This document shows positions 15,891 through 43,224 of a stretch of 43,224 nucleotides of DNA, piece by piece. Position 1 is the first letter of the stretch; each line of letters starts with the position of its first letter. Under the pieces are notes generated by a model. That model searched no databases. It was given only the letters and a program-made list of their open reading frames with translations, and was not told where the DNA came from. Both the position numbers and the translations under genes were made by a program. Origin of the DNA: a virus; UHGV virus genome UHGV-0208947; one strand, 5' to 3'.

Positions 15891-16673
15891 ATGAACCTTG
15901 AAAACACAGTGAAATACCACTTCGCTAAATCCACACTGATTAGCGATTCTCCGCGCGCTACCGCCTCCGATTCACTGACCGGTACCGACATAATGGCTGC
16001 CATGGGCATGACGCAGGAACGCGCCGCAATGGGTTACAGCGCCTTCCTCGGCAAGATGGGCATAAGCAATAACGACCGGGATCGGGCGATCGGTCTGCTG
16101 GCTGAGTACGCGATGACAAAATGCGACAAGGTTGCCGCACTGCGTAAGCTCGGTGCCGCGGTTAAACCTCAGGTGATGCACCAGTTGGCCACCTTCGCTT
16201 TTGAGGACTATTCCCGCAGCGCTGCCAGCGTGAAGCAGTGCGATTGTTGTGACGGTCAGGGCTTCATTGAGGCTGACGTATTTACCAATAAATTCCGTAA
16301 GCCAGAAGGGAAAATGACCGTGTCCGGGATGGTGAAGGTCAAAGAATCCATCAAAGTGCTATGCAAAAAGTGTAATGGCTCTGGTGTGGTTAGTGCTTCT
16401 TGCAGTGATTGCCATGGGCGCGGCAAGGCAGTGAACCAGGCTCTTACTGAGAAACAGGGCGTTCCTGTTCTGGCTGACTGTAAGCGCTGCGGAGGGCGTG
16501 GGTATGAACGACTTCCGTCGACTGAAGCCTATGCTGCTGTATGCCAGATTACTGACGCCATTAGCCTGGACACCTGGAAAAAGTCTGTTAAGCCATTCTA
16601 CGACCTGCTGATCACGAAATTTGATATCGAAGAGTCCTGGGCCGAAAAACAGCTTAAGCAGATAACGCGGTAA
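15891..16673 (+). CDS. Late-gene antiterminator Q-like protein with CxxCxGxG zinc-finger repeats
   Basis: 260-aa ORF between rusA and the lysis cassette; CDCCDGQG, CKKCNGSG, CSDCHGRG, CKRCGGRG repeats; call is mainly positional. Confidence 0.6.
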   Translation: MNLENTVKYHFAKSTLISDSPRATASDSLTGTDIMAAMGMTQERAAMGYSAFLGKMGISNNDRDRAIGLLAEYAMTKCDKVAALRKLGAAVKPQVMHQLATFAFEDYSRSAASVKQCDCCDGQGFIEADVFTNKFRKPEGKMTVSGMVKVKESIKVLCKKCNGSGVVSASCSDCHGRGKAVNQALTEKQGVPVLADCKRCGGRGYERLPSTEAYAAVCQITDAISLDTWKKSVKPFYDLLITKFDIEESWAEKQLKQITR

Positions 16674-35190: not shown

Positions 35191-36255
35191 ATGTCTCTTA
35201 ACTGGATGCGCCATTTTGAGCTGCAACTGTTGGACCAGAACGGGCAGGGCGTTTCCCTGTCTAACTTTAAGGTCACGTTCCAGATCGAGTGGGCAGACAC
35301 ACGCTGGCCGCGCGTGGCGAACGTGAAAATTTACAACCTTTCGACCGATACCACGAACAAGATACTTGGGCAGGAGTTTGCCAAAATTCGCATCATTGCC
35401 GGGTATGACGGTATAGCGCCGGATGTTGATGCGAGCCAGGTTGGTGTGTCCCGGGAGATTTCACCAGACCAGATAGGGCAGGTGAACGGTCAGAACTACG
35501 GCCTGATTTTTGACGGTGATATTCGCTTCACCGTCACCGGGAAGGACAACATTACGGATTCCTGGGTGTTGATTCAGGCCATTGGTGATCACGAAGCGTT
35601 CCTCTATGCGACCACCATCACCACGCTTGCCGCTGGCTATACCGTTGCGGATCTGCACCGGGCGACGATGCAGGATTTCAACGCGTTCGGCGTGACACAG
35701 GGCATTACCGGCGATTTTCCTGATACCGTGTTTCCTCGTGGCCGCGCGATTTACTCATCCAGCCGCAACGTGATGGATAATATTGCTGCGCAGTGCAAAG
35801 CGACATGGCAACTGGTGGATGGTCGGGTCCAGATGGTGCCGGAGGATAAATATATTCACGAAGCCATTGTGTTGAATGCCAATACTGGCCTGATCGGTAT
35901 GCCGCAACAGACAATGGGCGGCGGCGTAAACGTGCGGTGCCTGATAAACCCAAACATCCGCATTAATGGTCTTATCCAGCTCGATCAGGCTTCGGTGTAC
36001 CGCGCCACGCTCGGCAATAGCGAAATAGCACAGTCGCCCGGGCGTATCACCGAAACAGAAGAGAACGGCAACCGTGTGCTGACCGGCACGACGTCACAGG
36101 CTGCCAGCATTGCGACGGATGGCGTTTATATCGTCAAAGCTATCGACTATACTGGCGACACCAGAGGTCAGGCGTGGTACATGGATTTGATGTGTTTTGC
36201 GCGTGGCGCTCGTGATCTTTATAGCCCGAAAGCAATGCAAGGGACGACGAATTAG
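35191..36255 (+). CDS. Baseplate hub/tail protein (Mu gpP-like)
   Basis: 354-aa ORF preceding the spike gene. Confidence 0.5.
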   Translation: MSLNWMRHFELQLLDQNGQGVSLSNFKVTFQIEWADTRWPRVANVKIYNLSTDTTNKILGQEFAKIRIIAGYDGIAPDVDASQVGVSREISPDQIGQVNGQNYGLIFDGDIRFTVTGKDNITDSWVLIQAIGDHEAFLYATTITTLAAGYTVADLHRATMQDFNAFGVTQGITGDFPDTVFPRGRAIYSSSRNVMDNIAAQCKATWQLVDGRVQMVPEDKYIHEAIVLNANTGLIGMPQQTMGGGVNVRCLINPNIRINGLIQLDQASVYRATLGNSEIAQSPGRITETEENGNRVLTGTTSQAASIATDGVYIVKAIDYTGDTRGQAWYMDLMCFARGARDLYSPKAMQGTTN

Positions 36256-36267
36256 TGAGGTGGGGCC

Positions 36268-36612
36268 GTGAGACATTTACTTTGCACTGTTACCGTGTTC
36301 GCGGTGCTTATATCAGCACCCGCTTTTGCGGATCAGCAATGTGGTGATTTTAAAATCCATTGGGCAGATGATGGCTTAGCCAGAATCAATGGCGCAAAGC
36401 CAGAAATGCAAAAAATCACCTTCCTGAAAAACAAAGGCGATTATAACAATATCAAGATGGATTGGCGTATGGCTACCGATCAGCCTGGAAGATGGGTTGG
36501 TCTTGAGTACATCAATCGAAACGGCAAGATAATTCTCAATGCCCAGTGGCTGCAAGCCAGCATGAATGCGCCGCGTCAGTATGCAACCTATGATTGTATA
36601 AAGGTGAAATGA
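36268..36612 (+). CDS. Small secreted protein (signal peptide, two Cys), moron of unknown function
   Basis: MRHLLCTVTVFAVLISAPAFA-DQQC... signal peptide; AT-rich; inserted between baseplate genes. Confidence 0.55.
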   Translation: MRHLLCTVTVFAVLISAPAFADQQCGDFKIHWADDGLARINGAKPEMQKITFLKNKGDYNNIKMDWRMATDQPGRWVGLEYINRNGKIILNAQWLQASMNAPRQYATYDCIKVK

Positions 36613-37158
36613 GTGGCAGGTAAGGGACTGTCAACTATTGGCCCTTTGGATCTGGCATCTCTAAATGATGATAACTTTGTAATCACCATTGTTTTTCCTC
36701 ATTCGACGGCAAAAAATTATCCAATGGCTGTAGCCATTGCTGAGCTTTCAGATGTAAATAAAATTGGTGAGATAGCAGGGAAAAAATTCCATTTAGCGTC
36801 CTTTAGTAAAACGCCTGATCAACTATCAAGAGCTGCAAACCTATGTTATCTGGTGTATGGAATTACTGGCGTTCAAGCCTTTATTAACGGTGAGTTGGTT
36901 GTAAATGTTCAGGAGTTATCATCTTCTCTTGGATGTTATGCTCGATCACTAAAAGCCAACAATCAGCAGTCTTATTGCGAATGCGTTTCTAACTACCCGG
37001 GCAACTACCTTTTACCTTGCCGTTTACTTAGGGGGTGGGAAGGCGGAGTGTCCGATAAATTGCCATTTAGTTTGGCTGACCAAATACAAGCATTGGCAGT
37101 AAGTAAAGGGTGTAGTTGGTGTCCCAATTTCCACCCAGAAAAGATGAAGCGAATTTAA
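36613..37158 (+). CDS. Cys-rich hypothetical protein (second gene of the moron cassette)
   Basis: GTG start abutting the upstream stop; 181 aa with CxC...C...CxxC; followed by a strong terminator. Confidence 0.45.
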   Translation: MAGKGLSTIGPLDLASLNDDNFVITIVFPHSTAKNYPMAVAIAELSDVNKIGEIAGKKFHLASFSKTPDQLSRAANLCYLVYGITGVQAFINGELVVNVQELSSSLGCYARSLKANNQQSYCECVSNYPGNYLLPCRLLRGWEGGVSDKLPFSLADQIQALAVSKGCSWCPNFHPEKMKRI

Positions 37159-37165
37159 TAACACA

Positions 37166-37191
37166 AACCCGCCGCCGAGCGGGTTTTTTTT
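37166..37191 (+). terminator. Rho-independent terminator closing the moron cassette
   Basis: CCCGC-CGCCGA-GCGGG hairpin followed by T8. Confidence 0.6.
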
Positions 37192-37202
37192 ATGGGGTTT
37201 TT

Positions 37203-37943
37203 ATGCCAATTCCAACTCAATCACAGATCGGCGGTGAGCAGCAGACCGCGCAGGCCATTGCCGATTCGGTGTCTACCCAGATGCGCGTAGCGATGCCCGG
37301 CATCATTCAGTCGTTCGATCCTGATACTGTTACCTGCACGGTAGAGGTAGCGCTTCGCGGTATCGTTGGCGATGGCTCCACCGAATTAAAACCGCTGGTG
37401 GATGTGCCGGTTATCTTCCCGCGTGGCGGCGGTTGTACGCTGACTTTTCCGGTTAAAGAAGGCGACGAGTGCCTGCTGCTCTTTGCCGACCGTTGCATCG
37501 ATTTCTGGTGGCAGAGCGGCGGCGTTCAGGAGACCGTCGATCCGCGACAGCATGACTTATCTGATGCGTTCGCCATCGTTGGCCCGCAGTCGCAAGCACA
37601 GAAAATCAGCGGTATCAGTACCAGCGCCGCGCAGCTGCGAACCGATGATGGTGCGGCGTTCGTAGAGGTTGCCGCAGGACATAACATCACCGTTCAAACA
37701 CCGGGCCAGCTCACGGCTACGGCTGAAGGTGGAACGACAATCACATCCCCGACTATCACGCTGAACGGCAACGTAACGATTAATGGCAATCTGTCTCAGG
37801 GAATGGGCGAAAGTGGCGGTACTGCGACGATGCTTGGGCCGGTGACGGTGACTAACGATGTGAAGGCTGGAGGTAAGAGCCTCATCCAGCATACCCATGG
37901 CGGTGTGCAGAATGGCAGCGGGAATACTACCGCGCCTAATTAA
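37203..37943 (+). CDS. Baseplate spike/assembly protein V-like
   Basis: ATG at 37203 (MPIPTQSQIGGEQQTAQAIADSV...); Gly-rich C-terminus; precedes W-like and J-like baseplate genes. Confidence 0.6.
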   Translation: MPIPTQSQIGGEQQTAQAIADSVSTQMRVAMPGIIQSFDPDTVTCTVEVALRGIVGDGSTELKPLVDVPVIFPRGGGCTLTFPVKEGDECLLLFADRCIDFWWQSGGVQETVDPRQHDLSDAFAIVGPQSQAQKISGISTSAAQLRTDDGAAFVEVAAGHNITVQTPGQLTATAEGGTTITSPTITLNGNVTINGNLSQGMGESGGTATMLGPVTVTNDVKAGGKSLIQHTHGGVQNGSGNTTAPN

Positions 37944-37995: not shown

Positions 37996-38069
37996 ACTTT
38001 CTGCACCTTGAGGATAGCAAGGGAGAATATGTGATTAATTTTAGCAAACTGATACGGGAGTTGCGAGTC

Positions 38070-38168
38070 ATGGGCGAAAAACTACCCAACTGGAAATTCT
38101 TCCTCATCTGGGCCGTGTTCTTTTTATTCGGTCTGTCAAGCGTTATTAGCGCTATACGCTGGTGGTGA
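38070..38168 (+). CDS. Possible 32-aa membrane peptide
   Basis: MGEKLPNWKFFLIWAVFFLFGLSSVISAIRWW; GGGAG upstream; in-frame GTG at 38031 would give 45 aa; could be spurious. Confidence 0.2.
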   Translation: MGEKLPNWKFFLIWAVFFLFGLSSVISAIRWW

Positions 38169-38171
38169 TTT

Positions 38172-38525
38172 ATGCGATACCGACGCGAAGATGCTGACGG
38201 CGATTACACTTTCGGGCAGGGTGACAACACCTTCCTTATCGACAGCCCGGAGTGCGTTGCCCAGGCCGTAAAAACCCGTTTCGAGCTGTGGCGAGGTCAG
38301 TGGTTTCTCGACCTGACAGAAGGCACGCCGTATGTCCAGTCAGTGCTGGGTAAGCAGCGTTCTGACGTCTACATCCTGGCTATACGCGAACGCATACAGG
38401 ACACACCGGGCGTTCTGTCGATTCTTTCCTTTGATACCAATTATGACGGCACCAGTCGCCGCGTTACCTTCACCTCCTCCATTGACACAATCTACGGCCA
38501 GACGACTGTAACAAGCGAGGCATAA
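38172..38525 (+). CDS. Baseplate protein, GPW/gp25-like (candidate)
   Basis: 117-aa ORF immediately upstream of the J-like baseplate gene. Confidence 0.5.
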   Translation: MRYRREDADGDYTFGQGDNTFLIDSPECVAQAVKTRFELWRGQWFLDLTEGTPYVQSVLGKQRSDVYILAIRERIQDTPGVLSILSFDTNYDGTSRRVTFTSSIDTIYGQTTVTSEA

Positions 38526-40402: not shown

Positions 40403-41130
40403 TGGCTGGAACTAATGATTTTAAAGCGTTTGCGACAGATGCTAATGCAAATGTTACCTCGCAGGAGGAATGGGAGACGCTAACCGCACTGAAGAAAGGA
40501 TTCTCCTCGGGTAAAGCATCCAGCGCACAGGTCAGTAAAGCGCTGCGCCAACCGTCGACGATGGCGGCTGTACTGGGGCAGTTTATCGCGAACGCCGAAC
40601 TGGACGCGCTCGATGATGGTGACGTTGATGGACTGGTGGCAAAGCTGGCGACAGCGATTACCACAAACCTTGGTTTGGGAGAAGGCTCTGCATTACCTGT
40701 TGGTGTCCCTGTTCCGTGGCCTTCAGCCACTCCGCCAACAGGCTGGCTGAAATGCAATGGTGCAGCTTTTTCTGCTGAAGAATACCCGGAACTGGCAAAG
40801 GCTTATCCGACAAATAAATTGCCTGATTTACGTGGTGAGTTTATTCGTGGCTGGGATGACGGTCGTTCAGTAGATACTGGTCGCAGCGTTATGTCTGCAC
40901 AGAGAGCGCGTGTTGGTTATATTAAATTTGATATGGGAATTTATGGTATTCCTGCAGGTACGGGCTCACTTATTTTGTCCAATGATATCTTAATTACGGG
41001 TCATGACAGTAATGGCTCAAGCCTATTACTGAACAACTCTAATGAGCGGGCAATTGGTGAAATGTATGTCGTTCCTGCCGATACTCGCCCACAAAATATT
41101 GCATTTAACTATATCGTGAGGGCCGCATAA
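40402..41130 (+). CDS. Tail fibre protein (constant N-terminus plus currently expressed variable C-terminus with tail-collar-like motif)
   Basis: ...GWLKCNGAAFSAEEYPELAKAY...LPDLRGEFIRG resembles the phage tail collar/fibre domain; the hix-like crossover site lies within the gene at 40658-40683. Confidence 0.75.
   Translation: MAGTNDFKAFATDANANVTSQEEWETLTALKKGFSSGKASSAQVSKALRQPSTMAAVLGQFIANAELDALDDGDVDGLVAKLATAITTNLGLGEGSALPVGVPVPWPSATPPTGWLKCNGAAFSAEEYPELAKAYPTNKLPDLRGEFIRGWDDGRSVDTGRSVMSAQRARVGYIKFDMGIYGIPAGTGSLILSNDILITGHDSNGSSLLLNNSNERAIGEMYVVPADTRPQNIAFNYIVRAA
40658..40683. promoter_or_regulatory. Left inversion crossover site (hix/gix-like 26 bp) inside the tail fibre gene
   Basis: TTACCACAAACCTTGGTTTGGGAGAA; its reverse complement shares the first 14 bp (TTCTCCCAAACCAA) with the site at 42591-42616. 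Confidence 0.6.
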
Positions 41131-41732
41131 TGAATAATGCAGAATTAAATAGTGAATTGATTGCTACTGCGGCAGGGAATATTACTGTTTATAACTATGA
41201 TGGTGAGACGCGAGAGTATACTACTACATCAACTGAATATCTTGCTGTGGGTGTCGGTATCCCGGCAAGTTCCTGTTTAGATACTCCTGGCTCATATAAA
41301 GCTGGTTATGCAATCTGCCGTTCTGCAGATTTTAACTCATGGGAATATGTGCCAGACCATCGCGGTGAAATCGTCTTTAGCACCGAAACAGGAGAATCAA
41401 AAGAAATCACAGCTCCGGGTGATTACCCTAATAATACAACCACTATCGCCCCATTAACGCCATACGATAAATGGGATGGTGAGAAATGGGTGACGGATAC
41501 TGAGGCACAGCATAGCGCCGCAGTAGACGCGGCAGAAGCACAGCGTCAGTCACTGATTGATGCTGCAATGGCTTCCATCAGTCTGATTCAGCTGAAATTA
41601 CAGGCCGGACGGAAGTTGATGCAGGCAGAAACAACCCGGCTTAACGCTGTGCTGGATTACATTGACGCGGTGACGGCAACAAATACCAGCACCGCGCCGG
41701 ATGTCATCTGGCCTGAACTGCCGGAGGAGTAG
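41130..41732 (+). CDS. Tail fibre assembly protein (chaperone)
   Basis: 200 aa; C-terminal ...TNTSTAPDVIWPELPEE typical of Tfa proteins; coupled to the tail fibre gene. Confidence 0.7.
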   Translation: MNNAELNSELIATAAGNITVYNYDGETREYTTTSTEYLAVGVGIPASSCLDTPGSYKAGYAICRSADFNSWEYVPDHRGEIVFSTETGESKEITAPGDYPNNTTTIAPLTPYDKWDGEKWVTDTEAQHSAAVDAAEAQRQSLIDAAMASISLIQLKLQAGRKLMQAETTRLNAVLDYIDAVTATNTSTAPDVIWPELPEE

Positions 41733-42147
41733 GCCATTCAATATCTGGCGCACCGGAAGTATCGACCAGTTCCAGTGCGTCCAGATAATCCAGCCACGAA
41801 TTATATTGCGCCAGTTCCTCGCCTTTCAGACGACCAATAGCAGCTTTGCCAGGCCACTGATGGGTATTGATGTAGGTATTGACTTCTGAAACCAAAGATA
41901 TTTTTTTCATTTCAGCCGTCAACACCTCATCCTCTTTTGAAGGGGGTGGGGAATTAATCCATACTGGCCGTCCTGAACTATCAGCGCCAATTTCTTTCCC
42001 TTCTGGATGCAGACCAAGAAATTGCTCATATGTTTCTCTGGTAATTTCAATAACATCATCAGGAAGCGTTCCCGCATCCTCATATTCTGGAAACAATTCT
42101 TGCAGATAAAAACTTTTACTTCCGGGTGAAAAGAATACTGAGTTCAT
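41704..42147 (-). CDS. Alternative tail fibre assembly protein (inverted orientation)
   Basis: 147 aa; C-terminal ...DTSGAPDIEWPTPPAVQAR parallels the plus-strand Tfa; convergent overlap. Confidence 0.7.
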   Translation of the reverse strand: MNSVFFSPGSKSFYLQELFPEYEDAGTLPDDVIEITRETYEQFLGLHPEGKEIGADSSGRPVWINSPPPSKEDEVLTAEMKKISLVSEVNTYINTHQWPGKAAIGRLKGEELAQYNSWLDYLDALELVDTSGAPDIEWPTPPAVQAR

Positions 42148-42149
42148 TA

Positions 42150-42623
42150 TTACCGTCCAATGATTAACGCTGAGACGCTGGTATCTGAAGGAAAGTCTGC
42201 ATTCAGTGGTTTGTCGACTTTGAATACAATCGTATTATTCCCCCGGACAGCGGCAAAAGAACAAACCGCCGTCGCGTATGAACCTGTAATATTACTGAAT
42301 ACACCACCATAGGCTGTTGTTGATACCAGAGGGATAACGCCCAGCACCTTATTAGGAAATACAAAGGGCAATGTGGCTGTGGCAATATAAGACTTATTAG
42401 AACCTGTAATGGCATAAGCATTATCAGTCATTCCATTCATCGCCACTGGACCGCTTATACTTACAGTAACCATCTGAGTGATTAGCCCGTCAGGTTGACG
42501 AATCACAAAATTTCCATTGCCACCAGTAACCGTCCAGAAAGACATATCAGGGATTTGGTTTTCCCCGTTGCCCACATTCCTTTTTGCCGCTTCTCCCAAA
42601 CCAACCTTTTTTATAACCATCAA
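42150..42623 (-). CDS. Alternative tail fibre variable C-terminal cassette (silent in this orientation)
   Basis: N-terminal ...KKVGLGEAAKRN... reads through the right hix-like site and shares the GLGE junction with the constant part of the plus-strand fibre (..TTNLGLGEGS..). Confidence 0.65.
   Translation of the reverse strand: MMVIKKVGLGEAAKRNVGNGENQIPDMSFWTVTGGNGNFVIRQPDGLITQMVTVSISGPVAMNGMTDNAYAITGSNKSYIATATLPFVFPNKVLGVIPLVSTTAYGGVFSNITGSYATAVCSFAAVRGNNTIVFKVDKPLNADFPSDTSVSALIIGR
42591..42616. promoter_or_regulatory. Right inversion crossover site (hix/gix-like 26 bp)
   Basis: TTCTCCCAAACCAACCTTTTTTATAA; compare hixL TTCTTGAAAACCAAGGTTTTTGATAA as recalled. Confidence 0.6.
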
Positions 42624-42675
42624 AAATCTGGTGATGCTTCGCCGTTTCTCCTGTTTTCATAACAGGAGAAATCCC

Positions 42676-43224
42676 ATGATTTACGGTTATGCCCGAGTAT
42701 CAACAAACCACCAGGACACTGAATTGCAACTAACGGCGCTCAAGTCAGCGGGTTGTGAGAAAATTTTTGAAGAGCATGCCAGCGGGAGGAAATCGAATCG
42801 GCCGGTTCTAAAACGGCTGATCGCCACTATGCAGCCGGGGGATGAACTGGTGGTCTGGAAGCTGGACAGGATAGGCCGCAACGTTCTGCATGCGCTGTTG
42901 ATGTTCCAGCAGTTACAGGAAAAGGGTATCAACTTCCGCAGTATTACCGATGGCGTGGATCTCAAAACAGCCAGCGGCCGCTATAACTTTCGTAACATCC
43001 TTTCCGCAGCACAATATGAATCTGATCTTAATAGCGAACGTACCTTAGCAGGGCTGGCCGTAGCCAGGGCAAAAGGGCGAGTTGGTGGTCGCAGGCCTAA
43101 GTTCACGGATGAGCAATGGTGGGAAATGGGGGAGCGGATGGCAACCGGTGAATCACGACAAAGCGTATCAAAAACATATGGAGTAGGGCTCTCAACTCTG
43201 TATAAAAAGTTTCCAGCTAGCTGA
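42676..43224 (+). CDS. Serine DNA invertase (Gin/Hin/Pin/Cin family)
   Basis: ATG at 42676 after AGGAGA; MIYGYARVSTNHQDTELQ... with catalytic Ser in YARVST, VVWKLDRIGRN, C-terminal HTH ...GLSTLYKKFPAS; ends with TGA at the last window base. Confidence 0.85.
   Translation: MIYGYARVSTNHQDTELQLTALKSAGCEKIFEEHASGRKSNRPVLKRLIATMQPGDELVVWKLDRIGRNVLHALLMFQQLQEKGINFRSITDGVDLKTASGRYNFRNILSAAQYESDLNSERTLAGLAVARAKGRVGGRRPKFTDEQWWEMGERMATGESRQSVSKTYGVGLSTLYKKFPAS

Follow-up and report, generated by a model that had tools for sequence, protein, structure and literature searches.

A putative two-tier accessory-gene locus between the baseplate hub and spike genes of a SEN34-like temperate myovirus

Background

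Two small AT-rich genes stand between the baseplate hub gene and the spike gene in the tail operon of UHGV-0208947, a viral genome of 43,224 nucleotides (nt) whose full length is called the window below (features lie on the + strand unless noted otherwise). They encode a protein of 114 amino acids (aa) with a signal peptide and a Cys-rich protein of 181 aa, and are referred to here as open reading frame (ORF) A and ORF B. What are two such genes doing in a baseplate operon, and do they belong together? A first-pass annotation, drawn from the sequence alone, had taken them for a two-gene cargo cassette with its own terminator, inserted in a Mu-like tail cluster and possibly forming a toxin/immunity or envelope-acting pair.

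In this study, the region was compared among related loci and its products were analysed by profile searches and structure prediction. The region is probably a two-tier accessory-gene (moron) locus extending from hub to spike in the baseplate operon of a SEN34-like temperate myovirus. ORF A would form the first tier, a Sec-exported beta-barrel protein kept by almost every relative directly after the hub, and the second tier would be a slot reaching from the A stop codon to a conserved terminator before the spike gene, filled here by ORF B. Accessory-gene hotspots of temperate phages are a well-known kind of locus; literature searches aimed at the hotspot and at HK97 gp15 yielded no account of this particular slot or of the A and B families.

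Results and discussion

Organization of the locus in the window

The locus is made up of the following features.

35191 to 36255, + strand: 354-aa gene matching phrog_196, baseplate hub (E 4.7e-82); it anchors the locus on its left side
36268 to 36612, + strand: ORF A, 114 aa, GTG start, Shine-Dalgarno sequence GAGGTGG
36613 to 37158, + strand: ORF B, 181 aa, GTG start, Shine-Dalgarno sequence AAGGTGA
37165 to 37191, + strand: intrinsic terminator, with a stem at 37165-37186 of 8 pairs (5 G-C), a 6-nt loop and a T8 run at 37184-37191
37203 to 37943, + strand: gpV-type spike gene, 246 aa, the right anchor of the locus

Both flanks proved to be what the first-pass annotation had read into them. 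Besides its phrog_196 match, the hub gene scored 25.7 bits against Pfam E217_GP41, slightly under the cut-off of 27, and the spike gene carries the Pfam N-terminal spike domain (E 1.8e-41) and the Apex motif (E 3.8e-07). The base composition of the two genes differs from that of their neighbours, as had been noted: GC is 0.446 in ORF A and 0.414 in ORF B, with third-position GC (GC3) of 0.461 and 0.335, against GC of 0.53-0.57 and GC3 of 0.60-0.64 in the surrounding tail genes, and the stretch of both genes falls at the 5th percentile of GC among windows of equal size. The start codon of ORF B abuts the TGA of ORF A with zero spacing. The terminator, previously placed at 37166-37191, begins 6 nt past ORF B, ends 11 nt before the spike ATG and folds at -12.5 kcal/mol. 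Both ORFs are real genes, since homologues of ORF A form 79 clusters and the B family comprises 371 representatives. The hub gene and ORF A share a reading frame; translational read-through from one into the other was considered and rejected, as TAG and TGA stops intervene and the spacing changes among loci.

Distribution and reassortment of A, cargo and spike

Three sets of loci were used for this analysis: an A-anchored set retrieved from viral and genome collections through homologues of ORF A (n = 96, of which 91 include the spike gene), a hub-anchored set (79 loci, 77 complete) and the annotated copies in E. coli genomes and phages; the hub, A, B and spike genes were mapped in every set. 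ORF A lies directly 3' of the hub in 94 of the 96 A-anchored loci, the other two (L010 and L014) having extra A copies in between, and it is present in 74 of the 77 complete hub-anchored loci. The three remaining loci, whose hub proteins are about 95-97% identical to that of the window, have a lipoprotein gene instead.

L122 4507-5295, L155 4570-5295 and L168 4570-5295: gene replacing A, 241 aa, predicted lipoprotein with lipobox LTSC, unrelated to A

This 241-aa protein has no match in Pfam or PADLOC. The first position 3' of the hub seems to be reserved for exported proteins.

Beyond the A stop codon the picture changes completely. In the 91 loci with a spike gene the distance from A to spike ranges from 62 to 1714 nt, and the intervening DNA clusters into about 30 mutually unrelated types, each of them AT-rich (GC 0.34-0.46). 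ORF B is the cargo in only 7 of these loci, and two (L007 and L095) are free of cargo, with the terminator about 35 nt past the A stop codon. The cargo types diverge exactly from the A stop codon, variation is confined to the DNA 3' of that point, and many plus-strand cargos overlap the A stop codon at their start. The right edge has the same elements in every locus, namely a hairpin with its T-run and then the ribosome-binding site and ATG of the spike gene, and loci with a minus-strand cargo have an additional hairpin immediately past the A stop codon. Cargos can also be stacked in one slot, because a locus of Rosenbergiella epipactidis (L103, 6711-7656) has, between ORF B and the spike gene, a 267-aa DUF6414 gene on the minus strand and then a 59-aa ORF.

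When the segments were classified separately, the A genes fell into 22 classes, the cargos into 30 and the spike genes into 19, and 60 combinations of these occurred among the 91 loci. A, cargo and spike segments reassort freely; in L058, for instance, a 70%-identical A is combined with a 99%-identical B. The region is therefore not one cassette: it consists of the resident gene A, an interchangeable passenger (here B) and a terminator that belongs to the phage backbone. Comparison with related tail clusters, expected to confirm both genes as insertions, did so for B and failed to do so for A, which is a near-universal resident, and the terminator ascribed to the supposed cassette recurs, with the T-run and the spike ribosome-binding site, even where no cargo is present.

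The cargo carried elsewhere in the slot is diverse. Most common is a DUF4236 membrane protein encoded on the minus strand. Phd/Doc toxin-antitoxin pairs of two kinds were found, as were an EACC1-domain protein, a P22-type antirepressor-like gene accompanied by an Arc-like one, a membrane protein whose Cys-rich end is Mu-F-like, and a 258-aa protein paired with a weakly HEPN-like protein; the remaining cargos are several small secreted or membrane proteins and unannotated proteins.

The last codons of the hub gene would form the left recombination junction of the locus. Flanking direct or inverted repeats were sought as a sign of transposition, and just the terminator hairpin and chance matches were found, so transposition was dismissed as the route of insertion. 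Cargo exchange would instead proceed by homologous recombination in conserved flanking sequence, supplied on the left by the 3' end of A and on the right by the terminator together with the 5' end of the spike gene, and the RecE/RecT proteins of the phage may assist it.

Terminator and candidate promoter

The terminator is present in all loci, the cargo-free L007 and L095 included. At least six versions of its stem with compensatory changes were found (CCCGC/GCGGG, CCAGC/GCUGG, GCCGC/GCGGC, CCCACC/GGUGGG, CCCGGC/GCCGGG and GGUCGC/GCGGCC), all of which fold, most of them at -9 to -14.5 kcal/mol, with a run of U5-8 behind the stem. Since it is kept with or without cargo, the terminator is a feature of the phage backbone. 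An Rfam search returned sub-threshold matches only; the Trp_leader match at 37111-37192 (26.8 bits, where the gathering score is 41; E 0.012) was put aside as a chance resemblance arising from the hairpin and U-run.

On the left side a consensus scan detected one promoter-like element.

36125 to 36153, + strand: sigma-70 promoter-like element TTTATA-17-TATACT, within the 3' end of the hub gene and about 115 nt upstream of ORF A

It matches the consensus at 9 of 12 positions, and 26 of 28 distinct sequences retain it with no more than a single change in the hexamers. In the Tyr (TAT) and Thr (ACT) codons that underlie the hexamers the synonymous sites are nearly fixed, and adjacent synonymous sites are variable. 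No promoter-like element was found between A and B, which abut. These sequence patterns mark the hub-embedded element as a candidate promoter from which A and its cargo might be expressed in the lysogen.

ORF B would then have neither a promoter nor a terminator of its own, and passengers of the slot would plug into the transcription unit of A. In a lysogen, A and whatever cargo shares its orientation would be transcribed from the hub-embedded promoter as far as the terminator, which would so shield the spike gene and the baseplate genes downstream. During lytic growth, by analogy with lambda biology, polymerase modified by Q would read through the terminator.

The phage and its relatives

The genome is that of a SEN34-like lambdoid temperate myovirus. 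Its genes for lysogeny, replication and lysis include an integrase, RecE/RecT, lambda-type O and P, holins and an endolysin, and the following antiterminator.

15891 to 16670, + strand: Q-type antiterminator gene (Pfam PF03589 Antiterm, E 2.2e-45)

The tail is of the myovirus E217/Pam3 type. Besides hub and spike, its genes encode a DUF3383 sheath, a tape measure containing SLT, a Dit-like protein, a Pam3 gp18-like plug, a baseplate J protein and a DUF2612 protein. The nearest named relative sharing this gene order is Salmonella phage SEN34 (genus Brunovirus), which was reported as a lambdoid phage of myovirus morphology (PMC5261728); the earlier label Mu-like is contradicted by this relationship and by the integrase, RecE/RecT, O, P and Q genes. 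A copy in E. coli LR-33 is 99.9% identical, the region occurs in 51 of 5426 complete E. coli genomes (at the megablast level), and SEN34-like prophages are common in E. coli, Salmonella, Citrobacter, Klebsiella and Serratia.

ORF A encodes a predicted exported beta-barrel

The N-terminus of A reads MRH-LLCTVTVFAVLIS-APAFA, with cleavage expected before DQQCGD, and has the short basic region, hydrophobic core (Kyte-Doolittle 2.3-2.7) and AxA cleavage motif of a Sec substrate.

36268 to 36330, + strand: predicted Sec signal peptide of A, residues 1-21

The signal peptide with its AFA cleavage site and the two Cys residues described in the first-pass annotation were thus recovered at their places. 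This N-terminal layout is maintained in 33 aligned homologues despite a variable signal sequence. Mature A has about 93 aa and is strongly conserved except at residues 27-38, with two invariant Cys, C25 and C110; no lipobox precedes C25, and a lipoprotein reading was rejected. The AlphaFold2 model (predicted local distance difference test, pLDDT, 81.6) consists of an N-terminal helix followed by eight strands, and A is accordingly predicted from the model to be an exported, disulfide-bonded eight-stranded beta-barrel.

The A family comprises 79 clusters at 90% identity, all of them from Enterobacterales, and every examined copy is encoded in these tail clusters, none standing alone in a chromosome. 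More divergent copies (34-55% identity) come from phages of Klebsiella, Escherichia, Yersinia and Salmonella, again in the order hub-A-cargo-spike where this was checked. In two loci A-like copies are arranged in tandem.

L014 367-5279 (Serratia aquatilis NZ_CP173186): seven A-like copies, one of them frameshifted, with an insertion sequence (IS)-like element among them
L010 629-2846 (Pseudescherichia vulneris NZ_BBMZ01000043): four copies, each after a 62-69-aa fragment of the hub C-terminus

These arrays suggest that holding several A variants is advantageous.

Profile searches of A against Pfam, NCBIfam and PADLOC gave no match and led to a PHROG of unknown function only, and nothing significant was found with its model in a viral structure library. 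In databases the members of the A and B families are named 'hypothetical protein', and once 'secreted protein'.

What might such a protein do? Our tentative proposal is a role for A in the lysogen's periplasm, such as preventing related phages that arrive from penetrating with the tail tip or from delivering their DNA. An envelope location, as of superinfection exclusion proteins, is predicted for A from its Sec signal, AxA site and conserved Cys pair. T4 Spackle (Sp) is a periplasmic inhibitor of the gp5 tail lysozyme, a small Sec-exported protein of a lytic phage that stops incoming tail tips. Like Sp, A is predicted to be a small exported periplasmic phage protein; Sp is helical, in contrast to the eight-stranded barrel of A, and no similarity between the two was detected. 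The tape-measure protein of the window phage carries an SLT lytic transglycosylase domain by annotation, and the corresponding proteins of relatives match Pfam SLT.

As the main alternative, A could be a host-fitness moron, a periplasmic ligand-binding barrel that serves nutrient capture, envelope stress or virulence and has no part in exclusion. Its predicted fold resembles that of calycin/avidin-type binders of small ligands, a weak avidin match (E 0.022) was the only one among PDB sequences, and a conserved mature domain is compatible with a conserved host ligand. Lambda lom and bor are precedents for morons of this kind. Lom is also given as such in the literature (PMC3594210). Against these points, A was found only in the tail clusters described here, its 96% retention in phages of many host genera suggests a benefit to the phage, and the tandem variant arrays suit a role in conflict better. 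A role in host fitness is therefore considered unlikely.

ORF B belongs to a Cys-rich family with scattered locations

As the first-pass annotation had stated, B is rich in Cys with a CxC...C...CxxC pattern; it has 7 Cys, including C122-x-C124, C136 and C167-x-x-C170. No signal peptide or transmembrane segment was found, and B is predicted to be cytoplasmic. Its best profile match is phrog_16260 (E 2e-29), again of unknown function, so that for both proteins the profile searches proposed earlier were run and matched PHROGs of unknown function only; Pfam, NCBIfam, PADLOC and PDB gave no match for B. A word-indexed search found just six B clusters, all of 181 aa, and an exhaustive profile search extended the family to 371 representatives at 50% identity, mostly of 160-245 aa. 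Comparison of 57 family members with Pfam gave no meaningful family, and the family profile found nothing among PDB sequences. Residues F28, C108, C122, P135-C136 and C170 are invariant in the family and C167 is nearly so, with the motifs ..AHC.. and GCDWCPNF. The Cys pattern suggests a metal site in B. In the structure model the N-terminal domain is alpha/beta (pLDDT about 88).

Homologues of 40-71% identity from Serratia, Cronobacter, Rosenbergiella and metagenomes invariably show the gene order hub-A-B-spike, in some cases with further cargo behind B. More distant relatives (24-36% identity overall) are located outside the hub-spike slot, and nine such loci lack A. Some of them lie immediately downstream of prophage repressor genes, and others are antisense in tail or baseplate clusters of unrelated myoviruses.

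L106 5913-6548, L107 7001-7627, L191 3435-4130, L192 2989-3642 and L193 4001-4687: distant B relatives (24-33% identity) immediately downstream of prophage repressor genes
L194 4001-4567, L195 4001-4519 and L108 7001-7669: B relatives antisense in tail/baseplate clusters of unrelated myoviruses

A co-oriented gene for a cI-like helix-turn-helix (HTH)/S24 repressor lies upstream of the B relative in L106, L107, L193 and Bordetella phage IFTN2, and in Klebsiella phage ST899-OXA48phi17.1 the B relative follows a co-oriented Arc/Mnt-like repressor gene in an immI-like region. The position downstream of the repressor is where rexAB sits in lambda. The relative in Bordetella phage IFTN2 is itself annotated as 'prophage repressor', a name for which no support was found here. 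The B relatives of L108 and L195 are closely followed, on the same strand, by a gene of 111 aa. The family is thus met as a moron of baseplate clusters in three phage groups or more.

Positions in repressor operons and antisense to late genes are typical of expression from a repressed prophage and are incompatible with a structural role. Because its relatives sit after repressors or antisense in tail clusters, B can be read as an accessory gene expressed in the lysogen, and it is possible that B is a metal-binding cytoplasmic factor of the exclusion or defence type.

Could B instead be a counter-defence gene (anti-restriction, anti-CRISPR or similar) that serves the phage during infection? Its place within the late operon means that Q-dependent transcripts would express it as well, and a small, cytoplasmic, orphan and variable gene is typical of anti-defence genes. 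Late expression would nevertheless be poorly timed for counter-defence, and the locations of the distant relatives are those of prophage-expressed genes, which makes this alternative quite unlikely.

Virion component or dedicated pair

The near-universal hub-spike position of A in phages of Escherichia, Salmonella, Klebsiella, Serratia, Yersinia and others, together with its strongly conserved mature sequence, could also point to a structural or assembly part of the baseplate, such as an accessory of hub or spike. A is nevertheless argued to be a non-virion protein because of its predicted cleavable Sec signal peptide, its replacement by an unrelated lipoprotein in three phages with nearly identical hubs, its foreign composition (GC3 0.46, against 0.60-0.64 in structural genes) and the terminator directly after it, present even without cargo; its disulfide pair is of the periplasmic type, and tandem arrays of paralogues exist. 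A structural role for A is very improbable, and that A is not part of the virion is, like the two-tier reading as a whole, likely. Neither gene shows the marks of a virion-structural gene, as the first-pass annotation had recognized: the AT-rich A carries a signal peptide and can be replaced by another gene, and B is found in a minority of loci and has distant relatives antisense to late genes.

The idea of a dedicated two-component system moving as one cassette, be it toxin/immunity or an envelope effector with a cytoplasmic partner, has in its favour that A and B abut (TGA, GTG) and are probably co-transcribed, that both are AT-rich and that close B homologues always stand beside an A gene, but it is largely refuted by distribution and hardly credible, given that B is missing from 84 of the 91 A-containing loci with a spike gene, L058 mixes divergent A with near-identical B, A is absent from the nine distant B loci and profile searches revealed no similarity to a toxin, antitoxin or immunity family. 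In view of free reassortment and the occurrence of each gene without the other, A and B are not a dedicated or obligate pair.

Comparison with known accessory loci

Morons of lambdoid phages are the closest known kind of element, with HK97 gene 15 as the prototype, an exclusion gene inside the tail operon whose product gp15 blocks the DNA entry of other phages (Juhala et al. 2000; Cumby et al. 2012; reviewed in PMC3594210). Gene 15 and the locus described here are alike in that extra genes of deviant composition stand in the tail operon of a temperate phage of enterobacteria, between a promoter-like element on one side and an intrinsic terminator on the other, with a product targeted to the envelope (as predicted for A). 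They differ in that gp15 is a small inner-membrane protein and A a predicted soluble exported barrel, without relation in sequence or fold, and in that the present locus has two tiers, with about 30 alternative cargos sharing one terminator and with B lacking signals of its own.

The low GC and the succession of candidate promoter, gene and terminator fit the published (Juhala/Hendrix) moron definition (PMC3594210). Among the features of morons, deviant composition was found for both A and B by GC3. A terminator of its own closes the transcription unit of A with cargo as a whole, and not B alone. Presence or absence among close relatives is clear for B, which is carried by few loci and missing from the cargo-free ones, and weak for A, which is replaced in 3 of 77 loci. 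The term inserted cargo, first applied to both genes, is hence appropriate to the AT-rich and sporadic B and not to A.

Accessory and defence hotspots of P2-like phages, old/tin and Z/fun, offer a second comparison (Rousset et al. 2022, as summarised in bioRxiv 10.1101/2024.10.15.618418). The likeness lies in a fixed position between conserved phage genes, in one case beside a baseplate gene, and in unrelated AT-rich cargos that replace each other and include toxin-antitoxin and defence-type genes; the difference lies in the SEN34-like lineage, the hub-spike position and the mostly single small cargos without PADLOC match found here.

The tandem A copies of L010 and L014, in the former case with 3' fragments of the upstream gene, also recall the orphan modules (displaced C-terminal domains with immunity genes) of contact-dependent inhibition (CDI) and Rhs polymorphic toxins, with the differences that the fragment comes from the hub and not from a toxin domain and that arrays were seen in two of about 190 loci. 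The arrays may be scars of repeated recombination.

Points against the proposed functions

Several observations weigh against the two-tier reading or the functions attached to it. The promoter match of 9 in 12 lies inside coding sequence, where constraint at the protein level could explain part of its conservation. The conservation of mature A outside residues 27-38 suits a conserved host target as well as a phage target. The Cys-rich C-terminal half of B is poorly modelled (pLDDT <55), and metal binding is deduced from the invariant Cys. Neither A nor B matched known exclusion, defence or toxin families by sequence or fold, with zero families in PADLOC-DB 2.0 at E up to 1, and ten cargo proteins compared with PADLOC had no significant model match. 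Because PADLOC gave no significant cargo matches, the idea of a defence hotspot rests on Phd/Doc, EACC1 and genomic position. A bolder version is rather unlikely: that A represents a new periplasmic barrel family, kept by SEN34-like phages beside the tail-tip genes and halting related phages while they penetrate the periplasm, with variants stacked in arrays in some prophages; that B represents a new Cys-rich, metal-binding, single-gene family, sited by prophages in repressor operons and in morons of the baseplate region and protecting the lysogen; and that the slot, with its about 30 cargo types, is an unexplored defence or exclusion hotspot.

Other small genes and AT-rich stretches of the tail region

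Downstream of the spike gene a further small ORF was noted.

38031 to 38168: ORF of 45 aa, matched by phrog_6632 (E 3e-21) and corresponding to SEN34_23, for which a transmembrane segment is predicted

It occupies a 228-nt gap between the spike gene and a 117-aa gene at 38172-38525, counterparts of which in related loci match Pfam Sheath_initiator. The 45-aa ORF is restricted to one spike allele class (for example L002, L009, L066, L069, L076 and L094); most loci have the spike gene directly abutting the 117-aa-type gene, with no such ORF between them. The gap may be a second small accessory slot. More AT-rich stretches (GC 0.40-0.45) occur near the tail-fibre end at 40800-41400 and 41850-42750, the latter including two minus-strand ORFs (41704-42147 and 42150-42623), and could represent fibre/chaperone alternatives or further accessory genes.

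Conclusions

The locus between hub and spike illustrates how passengers may borrow the candidate promoter and the terminator of a resident moron rather than bring their own. A, near-universal and predicted to be exported, and the B family, recurrent in repressor operons, are both uncharacterised. Near-identical phage backbones that differ in cargo alone form a natural comparison set, and a slot with about 30 mostly unannotated cargos is a source of candidate genes for exclusion, defence and lysogenic conversion.

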